From Candidatus Heimdallarchaeum aukensis (GTDB taxonomy: Archaea > Asgardarchaeota > Heimdallarchaeia > Heimdallarchaeales > Heimdallarchaeaceae): a stretch of 64,000 nt of DNA. The notes beneath the pieces were generated by a model. It was given only the letters and a program-made list of their open reading frames with translations, was not told the DNA's origin and did no database searches. This document shows positions 36,773 through 43,759 of this stretch, one piece after another; position 1 is the stretch's first letter, and each line of letters opens with the position of its first letter. Made by a program: the position numbers and the translations under genes. The stretch spans positions 1,280,001 through 1,344,000 of the forward strand of contig CP084166.1 in assembly GCA_021513695.1 (NCBI GenBank), written 5' to 3'.

Positions 36773-36803
36773 TTTATATAGATGTGTGAGAATTTGTCAC
36801 ACA
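36773..36803 (+). promoter_or_regulatory. TATA box (TTTATATA) followed by perfect 7-7-7 palindrome TGTGTGA-gaatttg-TCACACA. Candidate operator of the downstream wHTH regulator gene.
   Basis: The palindrome lies between the TATA box and the GGTGG RBS (36807-36811), which precedes ATG 36818. Confidence 0.4.
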
Positions 36804-36817
36804 CAAAGGTGGTTAAG

Positions 36818-37081
36818 ATGAAACGAGAAAGATTACCCAAAGGGTCTCGTGAAGTAATTCAATTACTTGAAAAAGAGGGAGCATTAACTCAAAAAGCAAT
36901 TATTGATAAATTAAAGGACATGAAACCACGTTCTGTAAGATATACAGTTAGACAACTAATTGATAGATCAATTCTGTCAGAAATAGCTAACTTCTCAGAT
37001 ATGAGATCAAGCCTTATTGGTTTGAACAAACAAAATGAGGAAATCATTAAACAATTATCAAAAATTTCAGTTTCAACATAA
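36818..37081 (+). CDS. small winged-helix transcriptional regulator (likely true start at 36818, not 36782)
   Basis: 88-aa wHTH-like protein (…LTQKAIIDKLKDMKPRSVRYTVRQLIDRSIL…). The upstream ATG at 36782 falls inside the palindrome and lacks an RBS. Confidence 0.5.
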   Translation: MKRERLPKGSREVIQLLEKEGALTQKAIIDKLKDMKPRSVRYTVRQLIDRSILSEIANFSDMRSSLIGLNKQNEEIIKQLSKISVST

Positions 37082-37233
37082 GAAATGATAAACCAGAATT
37101 TTTCTGTTAATTATCATTTCTATTTTTTATAAAACATTCAATTTTTCTACTCTGATTAAAGAAAACCACATTAACTTTATTAATTTCTTTTCGCTTAAAG
37201 AAATACTTTTTTATGTATTATAATTAATTATCT

Positions 37234-38529
37234 TTGAAAGCTATGACATTAAAGATATTCCTTACAATAGGAGGTTTTTTTGTCTTAGATGACAATAATG
37301 ATGTTATATCTACTAAGACTTTTGAACCTGACCCAGTGTATGTTAGTACAAAGATCTTTAATTTAGAAAGATATAATGAATCTGAAGAATTAAATGCGAT
37401 TCTAGAAGAATATGCTGACACGGAAATTAAAACTAACTCTAGTTTAGTTCGTGATTTTATTCGTTCAAGAAGAAGGAAAGTTTCTTTAGATAATTCATCA
37501 GATGACTTCTATTCATTTCAAAGTTCATTATTTAGCAATTTAGCAAAACATACTAGTATTAAAACAGATGAGATTTATCATCAACTTGTTCGTGAAACTA
37601 ATATATTAATATCAAAAAAACGTGTTGCTGTCGCTAGTCAACGAACTGATAAAATGGTTGTCCATGCTATATTAAGTTTGGATGATATTGTTACTACAAT
37701 CAATCTTTTTATGAGTCGGATTCGAGAATGGTATGGGATTCATTTTCCTGAAATTTTAAAGGAAGTTGAAAACCATGAAACATTTTGCAAGATAATTACA
37801 GAAATTGGAGCAAGACAATTCTACTCAAAAAAAGCATTAGAAGAGTATGGATTTTCTGCTAAAAAAACAGAAAGGATCTATAATTTAGCAAAAAGTTCTA
37901 TGGGCGCAGAATATGATAACAAAGACCTTCTCCCTCTACAACGCTTAGCTCAGCAGACTCTACAATTATTCGAAGAAAAGCGTATGCTCGAAAATTGGAT
38001 AGATGAGCAAGTCAATAAGATTGCTCCTAATTTAAAAGCAATTGTTGGTTCAGCTATTACAGCAAGACTTATCGCTCTTGCTGGAGGTCTTCAAGAGATG
38101 GCACTTCTTCCTTCTTCTACAATTCAACTTCTTGGTGCAGAGAAAGCTCTCTTTAGAGCCTTAAAGACAGGTGCAAAACCCCCTAAACATGGTGTCATTT
38201 ATCAGACTCCTGAACTTCACAGTTGTAAATGGTGGCAAAGAGGTAACATCGCAAGAGCTATTGCTGGAAAATTGACAATTGCTGCCAGAATTGACGCTTT
38301 CCAAGGAGAATACAGAGGAGACGAATTAAAGATGGACCTCGATCAGAAAATTGAGGAAATAAAGGAGAAATATAGTGAACCTCCACAAGGAAAAAAAGAC
38401 CCTGCTCTAATACGTCAGCAAAGACCCCGCGGAAAACCAAAATCTCGATCAAGACAAAAAAACTATGATAAATCCAAAAGTAGGAAACACAAAGGTGGCA
38501 AAAACTATTCCAAAAAAGGAAAAAAATAG
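37234..38529 (+). CDS. nop5: C/D box snoRNP protein Nop56/58 (Nop5)
   Basis: NOP domain …AITARLIALAGGLQEMALLPSSTIQLLGAEKALFRAL…KHGVIYQ…, KK-rich tail, immediately upstream of fibrillarin. Confidence 0.85.
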   Translation: MKAMTLKIFLTIGGFFVLDDNNDVISTKTFEPDPVYVSTKIFNLERYNESEELNAILEEYADTEIKTNSSLVRDFIRSRRRKVSLDNSSDDFYSFQSSLFSNLAKHTSIKTDEIYHQLVRETNILISKKRVAVASQRTDKMVVHAILSLDDIVTTINLFMSRIREWYGIHFPEILKEVENHETFCKIITEIGARQFYSKKALEEYGFSAKKTERIYNLAKSSMGAEYDNKDLLPLQRLAQQTLQLFEEKRMLENWIDEQVNKIAPNLKAIVGSAITARLIALAGGLQEMALLPSSTIQLLGAEKALFRALKTGAKPPKHGVIYQTPELHSCKWWQRGNIARAIAGKLTIAARIDAFQGEYRGDELKMDLDQKIEEIKEKYSEPPQGKKDPALIRQQRPRGKPKSRSRQKNYDKSKSRKHKGGKNYSKKGKK

Positions 38530-38539
38530 GTGACAAATA

Positions 38540-39226
38540 ATGGTAGAACTAAAAAAACACAAATTTGAAAATCTTTTCTGGTTGCATTTTTCAGATGGAA
38601 AGGTTCGATTAGCTACTAAAAACAGCGATCCAGGTAAAAAAGTGTATACAGAAAGGCTCGTAAGTGTAGATGGAAATGAATATAGAACATTTGACCCCTA
38701 CAAAAGTAAATTAGCTGCCGCAATTAGATCGGACTTACAAAACTTTCCTTTTGATGAAGGAGTTAAAGTTCTTTATCTAGGTGCTGCATCAGGAACTACT
38801 GTTTCTCATGTTTCAGATATCATAGGAGATGATGGAGAGATTTATGCAGTAGAATTCTCTCCAAGATCATTAAGAGATTTAGTAACAGTAGCTGAAAGAA
38901 GAAAAAATATTATTCCTATTTTAGCTGATGCAAGGTATCCTGAGACTTACTCTTTCACTGTCCCCCAAGTTGACATTGTCTTTGAGGACGTAGCACAACC
39001 TTTTCAGACTGAGATTTTATGGGTAAATGTTCAAACCTTCCTTAAAAAAGGAGGCTTCTTCTTTATAGCTGTAAAAGCAAGAAGCATAGATGTTACAACT
39101 AGCCCAAAAGTTATTTTTGAACGAGTTAAAAAAGAGATTCTTGAATATGGATTAGAGATAGTCGAAGAAATCAACTTAGAACAATATGAAAAAGATCACA
39201 TGATGTTCGTGGGTAAAAAACCTTAA
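38540..39226 (+). CDS. flpA: fibrillarin (rRNA/tRNA 2'-O-methyltransferase)
   Basis: VLYLGAASGTTVSHVSDI SAM motif. Classic nop5-flpA pair. Confidence 0.9.
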   Translation: MVELKKHKFENLFWLHFSDGKVRLATKNSDPGKKVYTERLVSVDGNEYRTFDPYKSKLAAAIRSDLQNFPFDEGVKVLYLGAASGTTVSHVSDIIGDDGEIYAVEFSPRSLRDLVTVAERRKNIIPILADARYPETYSFTVPQVDIVFEDVAQPFQTEILWVNVQTFLKKGGFFFIAVKARSIDVTTSPKVIFERVKKEILEYGLEIVEEINLEQYEKDHMMFVGKKP

Positions 39227-40350
39227 CTCTCTAAATTTTCTTTTAGCATTGCATATTTTTTGATATATTCCTTAACTAAATCAAACGCTTTTTTCATTTC
39301 TTGTAGTTCGTCTATTGTAAATGTGGGAACTAGTTCTGAAGCTGGATGGTCTTCTTCATCGATTATCAAAATAGGTCTTCTTTTTGCAATAGATGCAATT
39401 TTTTGTGTCATTTCTACACGAGTAATGACATTTTTTCCGTTATCTTCGTCTACACACAACAAAACATTTAATCCGCTTTTTATGTCATGATTTCCATGTT
39501 CTCCATAAGCATCAAAAGGCATTTTTTTAACCCAGAACTGTGATATTAGTCCTAGATCTTCCAATAGAATTGCGATTTCTTCTTTCCTCGGAGTTAGTTT
39601 TTCTATTGAACTAACTGTATCTTCTTCTAAGCTGAATTTAATATTAAAAATAGGTATTCCTTGAGTTAAAGAGGTGTCTAAAATATCTTCCAGTAGAATT
39701 GCTGTTTCTGGAGGAGGATTTATAGAGTGCTCATATTCATACATTGTACGTCTTGAAATACCAATTAAACGTGCTAATTCACCATAACTTAGGTTTTTAT
39801 CCAATCTTGCTTTTCTTAAACTATTTCTATTTATACAGACATAATACCCTCCTCTATTACAATATACTACAGGAGGTAAACCATCGATCATCAAATTCAA
39901 AAATGTCTCAGGACTAATTACTGGGATGTCATGTCTGAATAAGACTAACCCATCTTGAATTTCATCAAATCTTTTTCCTCTTACACCAATAATAACAGGA
40001 GAAGCTTGGAGAAAAGCTGACAAGTTTTTTAATTCTTGAGCTTGTGCTTTTAATAAATTATCAATGTAGGGTTCGATTTTAATGATTGTTAACTTGCTTT
40101 CTTTTTTTGCAATAATATCAAAACATGTATTTGGAGTATTTGTGAGGTCGACAAATGAATAATTCAATTTAGTAAAAACTTTGAGAAGAATTTTTCTTAG
40201 AATCTCCTTTGCTTGACGCGAAGACGAATCCATCAACTCTCTCAGGTTTTCATTGAATTGTTTAATGTCGTCCTCAGAAAACATAGTGTTTCCTCTTTTA
40301 TTCTCAAAAAACATCACTTGTTTATAAATATAAATTTGTCTTTCGTGCAA
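39223..40350 (-). CDS. archaeal HTH (XRE-type) domain protein, putative transcriptional regulator, co-operonic with elp3
   Basis: Central HTH LSYGELARLIGISRRTMYEYE. The start is 4 nt after the Elp3 stop. Confidence 0.45.
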   Translation of the reverse strand: MHERQIYIYKQVMFFENKRGNTMFSEDDIKQFNENLRELMDSSSRQAKEILRKILLKVFTKLNYSFVDLTNTPNTCFDIIAKKESKLTIIKIEPYIDNLLKAQAQELKNLSAFLQASPVIIGVRGKRFDEIQDGLVLFRHDIPVISPETFLNLMIDGLPPVVYCNRGGYYVCINRNSLRKARLDKNLSYGELARLIGISRRTMYEYEHSINPPPETAILLEDILDTSLTQGIPIFNIKFSLEEDTVSSIEKLTPRKEEIAILLEDLGLISQFWVKKMPFDAYGEHGNHDIKSGLNVLLCVDEDNGKNVITRVEMTQKIASIAKRRPILIIDEEDHPASELVPTFTIDELQEMKKAFDLVKEYIKKYAMLKENLES

Positions 40351-40353
40351 AAC

Positions 40354-41946
40354 TCAAAGAATTTTACTCATATATGGGCCATCTCTTTCGTAGCCTAGTT
40401 TTCTATAATAATCTCTTACACCAACGCCAGAGATGACAGAAATTTTCTTATAACCTTTTTCGACTCCAATGTCCTCAGCTTTCTGAACTAGTTCTTTTCC
40501 AAAACCTCTATGCTGCCATTCATATTCTTCTTCTCCTTTTTTATGAACAGAAAGGGATTCACCGTAAACATGTAACTCTCTGATAACGATTGTAGGTTGA
40601 GATAGAAATTCAGGTCGATATTTATCCTCACTTAACTCTCTCAGTCGAAGGAAACCAATAATTACATCATGGTTTGTTTCTTCAAAAGACAAAAAGTATT
40701 CAATTCCCTTACTTGCTTTATATTTTCTTTTTACTAGTTCAATTGACTGAGGATCAAATTCTCCTTTGTTCTTGTAGAGATAATGACCAACTTCTCTACA
40801 TCTAATACACCTACACTTTTTGCCTTGTGATTCCATTAAAGCTTGTACATCAAGCCTTAAATCACTTTTTTTGGGACCAGCAACTATTTGATGTGCAGGA
40901 ATGTCTCTTAAAATTCTTTTTATTCGCACGTAAGGAGGAACAAATTCTTTTATTTTGGCAATGAGTTTAATCGTTTCTTCATCTGTTAAAGCTTGGTATT
41001 CTCCTTTTTTCCATAGGTCATAAAGTTTTGTACCAGGTATAACCATTGTAGGATAAATCTTAATTTCATCAGGTTGATAATCTTGAGATTGAAAAATTGT
41101 TTTAAAAGCTTCTATATCTCTTTCTTTTGTTGAACCTGGGAGTCCAGGCATCATATGTGCTGTTATTTTCAATCCTGCATCTTTTGTAAGCTGAATAGCT
41201 CTGATTGAATCAGTAACAGTATGCCCCCTAATCATTTTTTCGAAAACATCATCATAAACTGTTTGAATACCTAGTTCAAGTCTTGTAACACCATAATTTA
41301 ACAATTCATCTATCGTTTGTTTATCTATTTGATCTGGTCTCGTTTCTGCAGTTAACCCAACACATCGATGTTTAGCGTGTTCATTAATTTCATGAGCTTG
41401 CTCTATTGTATCAGAATCTACCCCATTAAATCCATCAAACATTCTTCTAATAAACCATTCTTGGTATTCTTTCGGTTGGTAAGTAAAAGTTCCTCCCATA
41501 ATAATAGCATCTATTTTTTCTGTAGAATGACCTATAGCTTCTAACTGATTAATCCTTTCAGTAACTTGAAGATAAGGGTCATAGTTATTTCTTATCCCTC
41601 TTCTTGATGTAGGTTCATAACCTGTATAACTTTGAGGTCTGTCAACATCTGGTCCCCCAGGACACATAATGCATTTACCATGAGGACAAGCCCAAGGCCT
41701 AGTCATTACTGCGACGATTGCCACACCAGATAGTGTTCTAACTCTTCTTTTCATTAAATAAGGACGAAGTTTTTCTAGTTCTTCATCATTACATATAGCG
41801 AGAATATCACTATTTCTAGGGAAAAAGGATAGAGAATACTCTTTAGATATCTTTCTTTTAATTTGATCAACGATTTTATCAGTTAATTTAGACTGACTCA
41901 ACAACTGTTTTTTAATTTCAGTAAAAGCAGAAAGAGATTTGTTCAT
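40354..41946 (-). CDS. elp3: Elp3-type radical SAM / GNAT tRNA modification enzyme
   Basis: Radical SAM Cys cluster CPHGKCIMCPGG and a C-terminal GNAT domain. Confidence 0.9.
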   Translation of the reverse strand: MNKSLSAFTEIKKQLLSQSKLTDKIVDQIKRKISKEYSLSFFPRNSDILAICNDEELEKLRPYLMKRRVRTLSGVAIVAVMTRPWACPHGKCIMCPGGPDVDRPQSYTGYEPTSRRGIRNNYDPYLQVTERINQLEAIGHSTEKIDAIIMGGTFTYQPKEYQEWFIRRMFDGFNGVDSDTIEQAHEINEHAKHRCVGLTAETRPDQIDKQTIDELLNYGVTRLELGIQTVYDDVFEKMIRGHTVTDSIRAIQLTKDAGLKITAHMMPGLPGSTKERDIEAFKTIFQSQDYQPDEIKIYPTMVIPGTKLYDLWKKGEYQALTDEETIKLIAKIKEFVPPYVRIKRILRDIPAHQIVAGPKKSDLRLDVQALMESQGKKCRCIRCREVGHYLYKNKGEFDPQSIELVKRKYKASKGIEYFLSFEETNHDVIIGFLRLRELSEDKYRPEFLSQPTIVIRELHVYGESLSVHKKGEEEYEWQHRGFGKELVQKAEDIGVEKGYKKISVISGVGVRDYYRKLGYERDGPYMSKIL

Positions 41947-41994: not shown

Positions 41995-42177
41995 TTACAT
42001 GTTATGCCTGCGTGAACCCATACTTGTTGGTTGTCCTGGAAACTTTCCTTTAATTACTCTTCTAATATAATTATTTCTGTGTCCTAGTCTTGGTATAGGA
42101 CTAACACGTTCTTTTCCTTGTACTTTTGGCGTTTGTTTTCTTACTTTTCCAGCTTTTTGTAACGAACCGTGACCCAT
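41995..42177 (-). CDS. rps30e: ribosomal protein eS30
   Basis: GSLQKAGKVRKQTPKV signature of S30e. Confidence 0.65.
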   Translation of the reverse strand: MGHGSLQKAGKVRKQTPKVQGKERVSPIPRLGHRNNYIRRVIKGKFPGQPTSMGSRRHNM

Positions 42178-42254
42178 TTAATCACTTCCACAAATTTCCT
42201 ATTTCATTGCAGATAAGAACTATATAAAAATATTTAGATTTCGTTGAATTCTCA

Positions 42255-42491
42255 GAAAAATTTGTGCCCAGATAGGAAGGAAATCTTTCTCGATGCTTCA
42301 GAGGTCTGGTAATTGAGGTTATACCTCTTTTGGGGGTTCTGGCAGACTAAAAGTCTGTGTTCTGGGGTTTAGAACTTTGTTAGGAGGTCATTCCTATAAA
42401 AAAGGGGGTGTTTAACCAAACTCATTCGCGCCCTTCACGGAGGGATTGAGCATCGGTTACTCTTCCTATCTGGTTTACACTTCCCTTTTTT
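42255..42491 (+). ncRNA. candidate structured ncRNA of unknown class (~230 nt) with TATA box upstream (42219-42230) and oligo-T terminator (42486-42491)
   Basis: GC-enriched island in AT-rich DNA. A 12-bp terminal helix pairs 42268-42279 (CCAGAUAGGAAG) with 42462-42473. A nested 8-bp helix pairs 42290-42297 with 42449-42456. There are several internal hairpins. Confidence 0.4.
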
Positions 42492-42571
42492 AGCTCTAAC
42501 TCATCAAAGTATCCACAACATTATTTATAAATCTTTTTCTGATTGTAACGTATATTTAAGAAAGAAAAAAA

Positions 42572-43759
42572 TTATAAAATGTCTTTAAAGCTATTTAAAA
42601 AACCAAGAAGAGCGTAAATAGCTGTTCCTTTCCAAAGTACACTTTCATCTACATCGAATTTCGGATGGTGATGAGGTGCGATTATTCCTTTTTCTTCATT
42701 TCTTACTCCAAGTGTAATAAAAGCTCCTTTGGTCTTTTTTACATAATAAGCAAAATCTTCTCCCCCCATCGTCATTTTTGCTTCACCGACATTGTCTAAA
42801 GCTGAAAGAGTTTTTTTCGCAAGTTCCACTGCTTCTTTATTATTAACTACAGGAGGATAGGTAGGATCATGGAATTTTATTTCAGCTTTGCATCTCCAAG
42901 CTTTACTATAACCTTCTGCTACTTCTATCAATCTATTAATAATATGTTCTCTCACCTCTTCATTAAAAGTTCTAAATGTACCTTCTAAAACTGCTCTAGC
43001 TGGAATTATGTTATGAGCATCACTTCCTGACAGTCTTGGGCTTGATAAAACTACATGTTCCAAAGGATCAATTTCTCTAGAAATTATCTTTTGAAGAGCA
43101 TTATAAATGTCCACTAGCACGGAGGTAGGGTCGAAAGTTTCATGAGGAGATGCGGCATGCCCTCCTTTTCCTGTTACTGTAATTATAAAACTGTCTGAAG
43201 AAGCTAAAAATGGTCCGACACGAGTTTCAATTTTTCCTGCATCATTATCGCCCCACACATGCAATCCATACACATAATCTACATCATCAAGTATTCCTTC
43301 CTCTGCAACTATTTTTCCTCCTCCATCTCCTTCTTCTGCTGGTTGAAAAATCAATTTTACTTTTCCTTCTAATTTATCCTTGTAGTCGTAGATTATTTTT
43401 GCTGCACCTAATAACATTGCAGTATGTGCGTCGTGACCACAAGCATGCATTTTTCCTTCATTTTTACTTTTATACTCTACTTCATTTTCTTCCTGAACAT
43501 TTAAAGCATCAATATCAGCTCTTAAACCAATAGTATAACCTTGTTTTTCTCCTTCTAATATAGCTAATACACCTGTTTTTGCTATTTTCTTTGTTTCATA
43601 ACCTATTTTTTGCAGTTCTTTTTCAATAAAAGCTTGAGTTTCATATTCTTCAAAAGCTGTTTCAGGGTGCATATGCAAATGTCTACGCTTTTCAATTATA
43701 TAGGAACTTAACTCTTTTGCCTTATTTATAATATCTTTTTTTAATTCCTCATTACTCAT
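42572..43759 (-). CDS. M20-family amidohydrolase (aminoacylase/hippurate-hydrolase type)
   Basis: MHACGHDAH metal-binding motif and M20D-like overall pattern. Confidence 0.8.
   Translation of the reverse strand: MSNEELKKDIINKAKELSSYIIEKRRHLHMHPETAFEEYETQAFIEKELQKIGYETKKIAKTGVLAILEGEKQGYTIGLRADIDALNVQEENEVEYKSKNEGKMHACGHDAHTAMLLGAAKIIYDYKDKLEGKVKLIFQPAEEGDGGGKIVAEEGILDDVDYVYGLHVWGDNDAGKIETRVGPFLASSDSFIITVTGKGGHAASPHETFDPTSVLVDIYNALQKIISREIDPLEHVVLSSPRLSGSDAHNIIPARAVLEGTFRTFNEEVREHIINRLIEVAEGYSKAWRCKAEIKFHDPTYPPVVNNKEAVELAKKTLSALDNVGEAKMTMGGEDFAYYVKKTKGAFITLGVRNEEKGIIAPHHHPKFDVDESVLWKGTAIYALLGFLNSFKDIL

Follow-up and report, generated by a model that had tools for sequence, protein, structure and literature searches.

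We found that a GC-rich intergenic block in Candidatus Heimdallarchaeum aukensis is, judging from its sequence and that of its relatives, a conserved gene that, in Heimdallarchaeum-like Asgard archaea, encodes a structured non-coding RNA with no family assigned. The block lies in a 64-kb stretch of DNA that was analysed as a whole (the window), and the signals around it place the gene on the minus strand. Since the ends of the RNA are predicted to form a bulge-helix-bulge (BHB), the motif cut by the archaeal tRNA-splicing enzyme, excision and circularisation are probable, and we think it fairly likely that this is an independent gene whose structured RNA is cut out at the BHB by the splicing endonuclease and ligated into a circle. 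The sequence-only reading had proposed a structured non-coding RNA without a known family at this place; that part held up, while its strand, promoter, terminator and boundaries did not.

Conservation and covariation of the RNA

G+C content reaches 42-45% in 42250-42499, as opposed to ~30% on either side and 31.5% in the entire window. The block contains the nested helices and local hairpins first described from the sequence, each where it had been placed: a 12-bp helix of CCAGATAGGAAG (42268-42279) with its exact reverse complement (42462-42473), an 8-bp helix of TCGATGCT (42290-42297) with AGCATCGG (42449-42456), and the hairpins GAGGU-UAU-ACCUC, CAGACU-AAA-AGUCUG and CCCUU-CACG-GAGGG. The 12-bp arm has only two occurrences in the 64 kb, where chance would give 0.25 with one mismatch allowed. 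Both strands fold more stably than any of 200 shuffles (plus strand, -79.1 kcal/mol, z -3.45, 0/200 as good; minus strand, -65.7 kcal/mol, z -5.06, 0/200 as good). The GC-rich block is a real feature and not a product of chance.

Homologs were searched for with nhmmer profiles, and the set compared here comprises 10 sequences. When the window is set against Ca. Heimdallarchaeum endolithica PR6, the RNA region stands out as the most conserved stretch, with 98-99.5% identity against a mean of 88.7% for the flanking genes over 7.5 kb, and homologs at 62-78% identity occur in seven lineages, one per locus. A pattern scan of metagenomes yielded a duplicate (L022, of L019), a new close relative (L023) and a chance match inside a Pro/Thr-rich ORF (L024), which was discarded. 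No copy was found in a scan of viral contigs, or in the available DNA of the Elp3-anchored loci L025-L028 and the distant locus L029. So far, the RNA is known only from Heimdallarchaeum and related Heimdallarchaeaceae-like Asgard archaea, and our reading of the literature on non-coding RNAs of Asgard archaea and Heimdallarchaeum and on circular RNAs turned up no description of it. In most lineages its neighbourhood, beside rpS30e or PAC2, is syntenic. An SRP19 gene lies 4-9 kb from the RNA in several loci, and in PR6 an IS element adjoins it.

On the minus strand, we assigned the following features:

42522-42540, minus: promoter, with a BRE-like AGAAAAAG (42533-42540) directly 5' of a TATA box, TTTATAAATA (42522-42531)
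42481-42505, minus: 5' leader of ~22-25 nt, contributing the outer BHB helix's 5' strand through the A-run 42486-42491 or through AGGGA (42482-42486)
42474-42480, minus: 5' half of the BHB, GUGU (42480-42477) and then a 3-nt bulge, AAA (42476-42474)
42262-42474, minus: predicted excised RNA, 213 nt, 45% G+C, circularisation probable
42462-42473, minus: P1 5' strand (CCAGAUAGGAAG), pairing perfectly over 12 bp with 42268-42279
42449-42455, minus: P2 5' strand (CGAUGCU), pairing with 42291-42297
42431-42444, minus: variable hairpin A (CCCU-CCGUGA-AGGG), in all lineages with altered stem sequence
42404-42417, minus: GGUU(N)AAC(A)CCCC, a conserved motif with a U-tract (42398-42403) after it
42381-42396, minus: hairpin B, presenting GACCUCCUA (42381-42389), 9 nt invariant in 10/10 sequences
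42359-42367, minus: CCCCAGAAC, in invariant columns of alignment A4, on the 5' side of hairpin C
42343-42357, minus: hairpin C (CAGACU-UUU-AGUCUG), with conserved CAGAC/GUCUG stem
42330-42342, minus: CCAGAACCCCCAA segment, 3' of hairpin C, near-invariant
42315-42327, minus: variable hairpin D (GAGGU-AUA-ACCUC), not in L014, L018 or L020
42291-42297, minus: P2 3' strand (AGCAUCG), partner of 42449-42455
42268-42279, minus: P1 3' strand (CUUCCUAUCUGG), partner of 42462-42473
42261-42267, minus: 3' half of the BHB, GCAC (42267-42264) and then the AAA bulge (42263-42261)
42256-42260, minus: U5 run, 3' strand of the outer helix and likely transcription stop

The nested helices covary in the related loci. 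In alignment A4, where 94.2% of the cells are paired, compensatory changes occur in 16 of 36 pairs; shuffled alignments had 7.6±1.7 (0/500 reached 16) and slid controls 1-6. RNAalifold likewise supported the covariation. Positions 2-6 of P1 covary, its distal AGGAAG/CUUCCU half is near-invariant, and position 10 carries a compensated A-U to G-C change in L012 only. P2 has compensatory changes at four of its seven positions. The interior fold differs between lineages, and in a manual alignment no tertiary pairing of the interior was supported by covariation. Long-range or P4-like pairings (GAGUUUGG with CCAGACCUC, GGG with CCC, GGUU with GACC) were rejected for inconsistent support across the alignment, and a K-turn or loop-E motif in the internal loop between P1 and P2 was rejected because its AGUA/GAA occurs only in the window type and L020.

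A predicted bulge-helix-bulge and proposed maturation

In pre-tRNAs, a BHB has one 3-nt bulge on either strand, located 3' of a central helix in both cases. Leader and trailer of the RNA, read in minus orientation, would form such a motif, with an outer helix, a 4-bp helix, an AAA bulge and the 12-bp helix P1. The central helix is exactly 4 bp in 10/10 sequences (GUGU/GCAC, GUGC/GCAC or CUGC/GCAG), and its first pair switches between G-C and C-G with both strands in step. Every homolog has [G/C]UG[C/U]-AA[A/G] immediately 5' of the 12-bp helix and GCA[C/G]-AA[A/U] immediately 3' of P1, and the register, [4-bp helix]-AAA-[P1] ... [P1]-[4-bp helix]-AAA-[outer helix], is identical across them. 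Helices flank the motif on both sides, P1 (11-12 bp) inside and the outer helix (5-9 bp) outside. The latter covaries among lineages (ACUGAAAAG/CUUUUCAGU, CUGUAAAG/CUUUACAG, GGGGA/UCCCU, AGGAGC/GCUCCU), with compensatory changes in 5/5 counted pairs; the window has a weak version of it, made of A5:U5 or of three G-U pairs.

All 10 sequences have a strict 5' bulge, AAA or AAG. On the 3' side, where the bulge reads AAA or AAU, only L020 and L021 are strict and show the textbook form of the motif; in the other lineages 1-2 nt oppose this bulge, with as many as 5 in one conformer of the window, and the motif is of the relaxed HBh' type. When mini-substrates made of leader and trailer were folded, the BHB was the minimum-energy structure in 7/8 homologs; in the window it lay 0.4 kcal/mol above the minimum-energy fold.

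In the pathway that we favour, the promoter at 42522-42540 would start a precursor of ~250 nt that ends at the U-run 42256-42260. Pairing of leader and trailer would bracket the RNA body with the BHB, and the archaeal tRNA-splicing endonuclease would cut both AAA bulges. From pre-tRNA geometry, we predict the 5' cut between 42475 and 42474 and the 3' cut between 42262 and 42261. RtcB would then ligate the ends into an exonuclease-resistant circle of ~213 nt (42474 to 42262), with the junction GGGCACAA^ACCAGAUAGG and with a 7-nt loop, GCACAAA, capping the 12-bp helix.

It is also possible, if on the unlikely side, that the minus-strand RNA stays linear and that its bulged terminal stem has a structural or protein-binding role and is not an endonuclease substrate. 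This would suit a motif that is relaxed in five of seven lineages and that is not the minimum-energy fold in the window. However, the 3-nt / 4-bp / 3-nt register is held in all lineages though the helix sequences vary, two loci (L020 and L021) have strict BHBs, and beyond the motif the leader and trailer show no sequence conservation, as would fit discarded flanks. Asgard archaea also have a broad-specificity (alpha-beta)2 endonuclease that accepts relaxed motifs (PMC5829648).

The features of this pathway resemble several known systems, among them the SRP RNA of Thermoproteus, which has a 23-nt leader and a BHB formed by leader and trailer, and which is cut by the endonuclease, circular and permuted (Plagens et al. 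2015, PMC4731332). Both are stand-alone non-coding RNA genes that have a short leader (~22-25 nt predicted here) behind a TATA promoter; the leader/trailer BHB, which in Thermoproteus is cut and ligated to a stable circle with the junction closing a helix, is predicted to act likewise here. Unlike the Thermoproteus RNA, which is recognisable and binds SRP19 and SRP54, the Heimdallarchaeal RNA has no SRP motifs or Rfam match and no sign of permutation, and its circle is a prediction. The processing stems of archaeal 16S and 23S pre-rRNAs likewise have a long flanking helix with a BHB, and lead to excision followed by circularisation (predicted here); circular pre-rRNA processing has also been reported for Asgard rRNAs (PMC12918454). 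Those stems bracket kilobase-sized rRNAs in an operon, whereas this one brackets a ~213-nt RNA in its own small unit. With archaeal tRNA BHB introns the RNA would share the cleavage motif, the endonuclease and RtcB, and a circular excised piece. In this case, however, it is the excised piece that is conserved and structured and forms the product, between short 'exons' that are not conserved, and no tRNA is present.

Strand, promoter and transcript ends

We place the gene on the minus strand because the BRE/TATA promoter and oligo-T runs are conserved there and its helices hold G-U pairs without A-C mismatches. In 7/7 lineages the promoter, AGAAAAAG-TTTAWATA, precedes the central BHB helix by 45-78 nt, in minus orientation only, and T5-T6 runs follow 0-40 nt past the 3' bulge in the same orientation in all lineages. 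The signals that mark an archaeal transcription unit (BRE and TATA upstream, oligo-T downstream) are thus present at the sequence level. The usual archaeal promoter-to-start spacing of ~26 nt would put the transcription start at ~42500-42505.

The outer, central, P1 and P2 helices together have 235 Watson-Crick pairs, 13 G-U pairs and no A-C mismatch in minus orientation. The outer helix was itself defined in minus orientation, and the G-U evidence beyond it comes from few independent events, two counted, in the central and P2 helices: the U-G wobble of GUGU/GCAC, which on the plus strand would be a C-A mismatch, and a P2 G-U pair in L013, which would be A-C. Further strand evidence comes from G-U pairs of hairpin C in L012 and L018, which would also be A-C on the plus strand (alignment read by eye), and from partial copies of the 3' end in L018, which in minus orientation lie downstream of the gene. 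Against our model, the minus-strand RNA of every lineage has an internal U4-U6 tract, which could terminate archaeal RNA polymerase prematurely.

The sequence-only reading had instead seen a plus-strand RNA of ~230 nt, running from its own TATA box at 42221-42230 to a T6 terminator at 42486-42491. We consider this quite improbable. As sequence, both elements are there (TATATAAAAA and T6), and in the window the TATA spacing and the T6 tract suit a plus-strand RNA; this strand also has the lower-energy fold (-79.1 vs -65.7 kcal/mol), and it is G/U-rich, as many structured RNAs are. Across lineages, however, no plus-strand promoter or terminator is conserved. The TATA box turned out to be the rpS30e promoter: in every lineage it precedes the ATG of rpS30e by 45-60 nt, also in L012, L017, L025, L027 and L028, where rpS30e is not preceded by the RNA. 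In L013 it is 54 nt from the RNA, and on that side of the RNA no TATA-like box lies within 20-40 nt in L014, L018 or L020. Plus-strand T-runs past the helix are short or missing in L012, L014 and L015. The 13 G-U positions would become A-C mismatches, and the BHB geometry would be wrong, with the bulges 5' of the central helix in mirror image. The stronger plus-strand folding energy had misled the earlier strand call. Read on the minus strand, the T6 tract is an A-run in the 5' leader that could pair with the trailer. The boundaries 42255-42491 also needed revision: with the promoter at 42522-42540 and the U-run at 42256-42260 on the other strand, the transcript 5' end would fall outside them, and the BHB of leader and trailer had gone unnoticed.

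A minus-strand transcript could also be a cis-acting leader, or a 5' UTR BHB intron, of the rpS30e mRNA, regulating rpS30e by read-through from upstream. In 5/7 lineages the RNA is the immediate upstream neighbour of rpS30e, on the same strand, and BHB introns are known in archaeal mRNAs (Cbf5). We nevertheless find this very improbable. rpS30e retains its own conserved promoter between the RNA and its ATG, T-runs part the two, and the RNA body is far more conserved than its flanks, the would-be UTR. Moreover, the RNA is inverted and 1.6 kb from rpS30e in L012, and 6.4 kb away in L018.

Identity of the RNA

Comparison with Rfam gave no gathering-score match in the window or in 8 related loci, in keeping with the earlier view that the RNA is unclassified and is neither RNase P RNA nor SRP RNA. 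At E<=10, four divergent members of the set returned only noise (mir-223, CLRN1-AS1, Termite-leu, IRES_Tobamo etc.). Archaea_SRP had no match at this threshold on either strand of the window, L015, L020 or L014, nor did RNase P types A, M and T, for which a conserved P4 pairing of the GGAAAGUCC/ACAGAA type was also not found. A scan of the window found no tRNA or tmRNA.

That a highly divergent or permuted SRP or RNase P RNA was missed by the covariance models, as the Thermoproteus SRP RNA was, is extremely improbable in our view. The BHB-flanked leader and trailer are as in that permuted RNA, the SRP19 gene is 4-9 kb off in several loci, and CCAGAAC faintly resembles the ACAGAA of RNase P. 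However, permutation could not hide local matches, and none appeared at E<=10 for the four members, which differ by up to ~40%. The sole GAAGCA is in the covarying Watson-Crick helix P2 and not in a helix-8-type loop, neither a GNAR-capped helix 6 nor a helix 8 with its GNRA and AGCA-type loops was found by eye, and the manual alignment holds no conserved P4-type long-range pairing. The RNA is also absent from this locus in other relatives, whose genomes could have it elsewhere.

A MITE or small mobile element, to which the perfect 12-bp terminal inverted repeats, the IS element beside the RNA in PR6 and partial copies of its 3' end in L018 (downstream of the gene in minus orientation) might point, is scarcely credible for an RNA that is single-copy in the window and in every locus, syntenic by rpS30e or PAC2 in most lineages and without viral-contig matches, that has its own promoter and terminator, and whose 'inverted repeats' change by compensation, keeping the pairing and not the sequence; a structured RNA gene in place of a MITE, argued earlier from the nested helices, is thus borne out.

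Several resemblances to other RNAs were set aside. A C/D-box reading of the spliced leader and trailer was rejected for want of conservation: UGAUGA (leader) and CUGA (trailer) are confined to the window and PR6, L023 has lost them, and L013 and the remaining lineages lack them. The ACA after P1, as in an H/ACA guide, is not conserved (GCAGAAA in L014, L018 and L015). A telomerase-template look-alike in L014, AACCCCAAC, was taken as a coincidence, as the genomes are circular and no reverse transcriptase is present.

Interior motifs and possible roles

We modelled the mature RNA as a long stem (P1 of 12 bp, an internal loop and P2 of 7-10 bp) closing a multi-branched domain. This domain would show invariant, mostly unpaired C-rich motifs: GACCUCCUA in a hairpin loop, CCCCAGAAC and CCAGAACCCCCAA on either side of another hairpin, and GGUUGAACCCC followed by a U-tract. 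In circular folds, the mean unpaired probability of GACCUCC was 0.58-0.85, and the unpaired probability of the CCAGAACCCCCAA segment was 0.5-0.95; CAGAACCCC, in this segment, occurs only once in 64 kb. UGGUUGAACCCC(C) with its U-run is found in all lineages and is doubled in L014, L018, L015 and L020. The stem of hairpin A becomes UUCCU/AGGAA in L015 and CGCC/GGCG in L020, that of hairpin B is longer and altered in L014, L018, L015 and L020 (GGCUUAG/CUAAGCC), and a second hairpin is inserted at hairpin C in L014, L018 and L015.

Our guess is that the C-rich motifs are binding sites for a protein or a G-rich RNA partner, in which case the RNA might serve as a stable scaffold or sponge; no partner for them was found. 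Candidate protein partners would be Sm-like proteins at the U-tract and, at the ACCUCCU loop, KH-domain proteins of the Dim2/Pno1 kind. The arrangement, with three to four copies of GAACCCC / CCAGAAC, recalls the short unpaired motifs repeated between hairpins in CsrB/RsmZ and CrcZ. The likeness is architectural only, since those are bacterial, linear, protein-sequestering RNAs with GGA or CA motifs and known protein partners.

More speculatively, and we think this decidedly doubtful, the RNA could be the first of a new class of endonuclease-made circular regulatory RNAs, acting as a sponge on the translation apparatus. The invariant loop GACCUCCUA would then copy the 16S rRNA 3' end (ACCUCCU), and the GAACCCC repeats would titrate either G-rich RNAs or a factor that binds this end and acts in ribosome biogenesis or in translation initiation. 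Possible targets complementary to GACCUCCUA, CCAGAACCCCC and GGUUUGAACCCCC would be rRNA precursors, tRNA T-arms (GGGGGUUCAAA) and 5' UTRs. An anti-Shine-Dalgarno sponge has low probability because the Shine-Dalgarno sequence used by local genes, GGUGAU, pairs poorly with the GACCUCC loop.

Beyond tRNAs, the archaeal tRNA-splicing machinery has, to our knowledge, few targets: precursors of rRNAs, a single permuted SRP RNA and a small number of mRNAs. If our model is true, a BHB-excised RNA from a dedicated small gene would be a new substrate class of this machinery and would suggest purpose-built circular non-coding RNAs in Asgard archaea. No known organisms are closer to eukaryotes than Heimdallarchaeia, and a connection of the RNA with translation or ribosome biogenesis, if there is one, would bear on the origin of eukaryotic RNA biology. 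For annotators, the RNA is a new family to model, with 10 sequences, a defined structure, clear strand signals and a predicted excised product of 210-260 nt in the relatives.

A conserved GC-rich element upstream of rpS30e

The sequence-only reading had described a GC-rich block with nested inverted arms between rpS30e and an M20 amidohydrolase gene, and all the sequence features it listed were found in place. The 12-nt arm CCAGATAGGAAG occurs in the 64-kb window only at 42268-42279 and, as its reverse complement, at 42462-42473, and TCGATGCT (42290-42297) pairs with AGCATCGG (42449-42456). Positions 42250-42499 have 42-45% G+C, whereas the flanks have about 30% and the whole window has 31.5%.

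Features flanking the RNA gene in the window
42572-43759, minus: M20 peptidase gene, one neighbour
42522-42540, minus: putative BRE/TATA of the RNA gene
42221-42236, minus: rpS30e promoter TAAATATTTTTATATA, with equivalent sites in L012-L028
41995-42177, minus: rpS30e, the other neighbour

An Elp3-anchored genome scan identified Ca. Heimdallarchaeum endolithica PR6 (CP084167.1) as the nearest relative (Elp3 identity 95%), which places the source of the window among Heimdallarchaeum-like Asgard archaea. PR6 is 88.7% identical to the window across 7.5 kb of mostly coding DNA, and 98-99.5% identical in windows spanning 42101-42500, the top of the whole comparison. Further contigs were reached through Elp3 homologs (64-77% identity). 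Searched with a profile, L013, L012, L014, L018 (the same as L019 and L022), L015 (the same as L016) and L020 (nearly the same as L021) each proved to contain a single homolog of the element. With a third close relative, L023, from a metagenome pattern scan, the set reaches 10 distinct sequences, which represent 7 lineages, measure 210-260 nt and fall to about 62% identity. The element usually lies immediately upstream of rpS30e; L012 has it inverted at a distance of 1.6 kb, and L018 has it 6.4 kb away. It was not found in the DNA available for L025-L029. A match to a degenerate DNA pattern at L024:668-728, in a Pro/Thr-rich repetitive coding region of an unrelated metagenomic contig, was rejected as chance; C/A-rich patterns pick up low-complexity ORFs. 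Together, these comparisons indicate that the element is conserved and under selection.

Past rpS30e, the minus-strand downstream order is Elp3, a PDDEXK/HTH gene, fibrillarin and Nop56/58. This translation and RNA-processing neighbourhood (Nop56/58, fibrillarin, PDDEXK_19-HTH protein, Elp3, rpS30e) is kept in the window (36782-41946) and in L012-L028, and relatives carry ribosomal S8e, SRP19 and Gar1 within a few kb of it. In several lineages (L014:5293-5619, L017:155-481 and L018:7288-7614, minus in each) a conserved 108-aa ORF without a Pfam match lies upstream of rpS30e and diverges from it; in L014 it separates the RNA gene from rpS30e. Several metagenomic contigs extend no more than a few hundred bases past rpS30e on its upstream side and end close to the expected site of the RNA gene.

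Anatomy and ends of the predicted RNA

Predicted mature RNA, in minus orientation
42473-42462 / 42279-42268, minus: terminal helix P1, 12 bp
between P1 and P2, minus: asymmetric internal loop, with strands of 5-7 nt and 10-13 nt
42455-42449 / 42297-42291, minus: nested helix P2, 7-10 bp according to lineage
42444-42431, minus: hairpin A, variable
42417-42398, minus: GGUU(N)AAC(A)CCCC and U-tract, duplicated in four lineages
42396-42381, minus: hairpin B, presenting invariant GACCUCCUA
42367-42359, minus: CCCCAGAAC, invariant
42357-42343, minus: hairpin C, stem conserved
42342-42330, minus: CCAGAACCCCCAA, near-invariant
42327-42315, minus: hairpin D, variable

In circular partition-function folds the invariant blocks, which are C-rich and G-poor, are mainly unpaired (0.5-0.95 for CAGAACCCC, 0.58-0.85 for GACCUCC). 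The interior fold varies among lineages, and a search across them for tertiary pairing in the interior established none.

On the minus strand, every homolog reads outer helix, 0-2 nt, 4-bp central helix, AAA or AAG, and P1, and on the 3' side the second strand of P1, that of the 4-bp helix, AAA or AAU, and that of the outer helix. This is the layout of a bulge-helix-bulge (BHB), the motif cut by the archaeal tRNA-splicing endonuclease, in textbook form in L020 and L021 (AGGAG[U/C]-GUGC-AAG-CAGAG ... CUCUG-GCAC-AAA-GCUCCU) and in a relaxed form in the other lineages. The two strands of the outer helix covary (ACUGAAAAG/CUUUUCAGU, CUGUAAAG/CUUUACAG, GGGGA/UCCCU, AGGAA/UUUCU), and the central helix changes from GUGC/GCAC to CUGC/GCAG. 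In pre-tRNA the central helix comprises positions 32-35, the 5' site follows position 37 and the 3' bulge adjoins the anticodon stem; here too each bulge is on the 3' side of the central helix, where the plus strand would give the mirror image. When leader and trailer were folded around a capped P1 for 8 homologs, the BHB was exactly the minimum-energy structure in 7; in the window it lies 0.4 kcal/mol above the minimum because the outer helix is weak.

Pre-tRNA is cut after the second bulge nucleotide. Cuts by this rule would release a 213-nt product from the window precursor (42474 to 42262), which ligation would close into a GCACAAA loop on P1. The element shares its TATA, leader and leader-trailer BHB layout with the Thermoproteus SRP RNA precursor, which has a TATA box and a 23-nt leader and whose RNA is endonuclease-cut and found as a circle (PMC4731332). 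The (alpha-beta)2 endonuclease encoded by Asgard archaea has the L1 insert and tolerates relaxed motifs (PMC5829648). We infer that the RNA is excised and circularised; a linear RNA whose terminal stem is left uncut is unlikely, but is the alternative that we take most seriously.

A C/D sRNA of about 50 nt, spliced from leader and trailer through the BHB, was considered and rejected: L023 has lost the boxes, and other lineages lack them. The C-box-like UGAUGA in the window leader (about 42498-42503, minus) and the D-box-like CUGA in its trailer (42252-42255, minus) are probably chance.

Strand, promoter and terminator

A plus-strand RNA with a TATA box at 42221-42230 and a T6 terminator at 42486-42491 had been proposed, but four lines of evidence, from the promoter, the terminator, the proposed TATA box and the wobble pairs, all favour the minus strand. 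The terminal helices were tabulated by hand (235 Watson-Crick, 13 G-U and 1 other pair), and every one of the 13 non-Watson-Crick transition pairs is G-U on the minus strand; examples are U-G in window GUGU/GCAC, G-U in L013 P2, and U-G in L020 where L021 has C-G. Further G-U pairs occur in hairpin C of L012 and L018. Either strand folds better than its shuffled controls, and the plus strand does have the lower folding energy (-79.1 kcal/mol, z -3.45; minus strand -65.7 kcal/mol, z -5.06), but this is an effect of its richness in G and U and does not identify the strand. A plus-strand sRNA would turn the helix G-U pairs into A-C mismatches, and we regard it as improbable.

In all lineages a purine-rich BRE immediately 5' of a TATA (AGAAAAAG-TTTAWATA) lies on the minus strand 45-78 nt upstream of the terminal structure; in the window, where it occupies 42522-42540, there is no plus-strand gene beyond it for it to serve. 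A T5-T6 run follows 0-40 nt past the structure on the minus strand in all lineages, and plus-strand T-runs are short or absent in L012, L014 and L015. Some lineages have internal T-runs in both orientations; the minus-strand RNA carries a conserved U4-U6 tract in its interior, at which some termination might occur.

The TATA box of the sequence-only reading instead belongs to rpS30e, because its motif (ATCTAAATATTTTTA / AACTATAAGTTTTTAAA, 45-60 nt before the rpS30e ATG at all loci) tracks that ATG even in L012, L017, L025, L027 and L028, where the RNA is missing from that position. Along with this promoter, all lineages keep a Shine-Dalgarno of the GGTGAT type some 10 nt ahead of the ATG. That the element is itself a leader or intron of rpS30e, the gene it usually adjoins, seems very unlikely.

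Class, possible function and nearby insertions

Rfam 15 gave no match at gathering score in the window or 8 loci; with the threshold relaxed to E<=10, both strands of the window, L015, L020 and L014 gave nothing beyond noise. A tRNA/tmRNA scan of the window found none, and C/D and ACA boxes are not conserved among the homologs. Hallmarks of SRP RNA and RNase P RNA are absent, the sole GAAGCA sitting in a covarying Watson-Crick helix, so a disguised form of either is still less likely than an rpS30e leader.

RNAalifold recovers the outer helix, the 4-bp helix, P1 (12 bp), P2 (8 pairs) and hairpin C. In the alignment of homologs used for pair counts, 94.2% of cells are paired, and compensatory double changes occur in 16 of 36 pairs; column shuffles gave 7.6+-1.7 (none of 500 reached 16), and sliding the partners by 1-3 columns gave 1-6. 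On these covariation grounds the element acts as an RNA. A MITE is expected to keep its arm sequence; here the arms change while pairing persists, and each locus, the window included, has one copy, which makes a MITE the least likely reading of all. Thus a structured RNA, not a MITE and of no known family, stands from the earlier interpretation, whereas its strand, TATA box and terminator do not. The element is a new RNA family that seems to follow a known maturation route.

Comparative evidence establishes a conserved, covarying minus-strand RNA gene with its own signals and a BHB at its base. Our guess is that the unpaired, invariant motifs are recognition sites, in which case the RNA would serve as a stable scaffold or as a sponge. 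GACCUCCUA and the 16S rRNA 3' end have ACCUCCU in common, and the GAACCCC repeats are complementary to GGGGUUC. We give functional readings of either likeness low weight because the local Shine-Dalgarno is GGUGAU and the window yielded no target. Interest would be greater if circularity and a link to translation were demonstrated, and is moderate at present.

L018 (like L019 and L022) has degenerate copies of the final ~45 nt of the RNA gene, from the second strand of P2 to the U-run, at two places (L018:1646-1690 and L018:3105-3150) within the 6.4 kb that parts the RNA from rpS30e; they come after successive inserted ORFs. The pattern resembles recurrent site-specific insertion at the gene's 3' end, of the kind seen at tRNA genes; Pfam searches of the inserted ORFs had no hits and revealed no integrase. 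PR6 carries a ~1-kb insertion (L001:4371-5390) that is missing from the window, just upstream of the BRE/TATA of the RNA gene, at a point corresponding to window ~42553-42557. Its coding content, an HTH_28 protein together with an rve (DDE integrase core) transposase divided among several ORFs, marks it as an IS element, possibly decayed.
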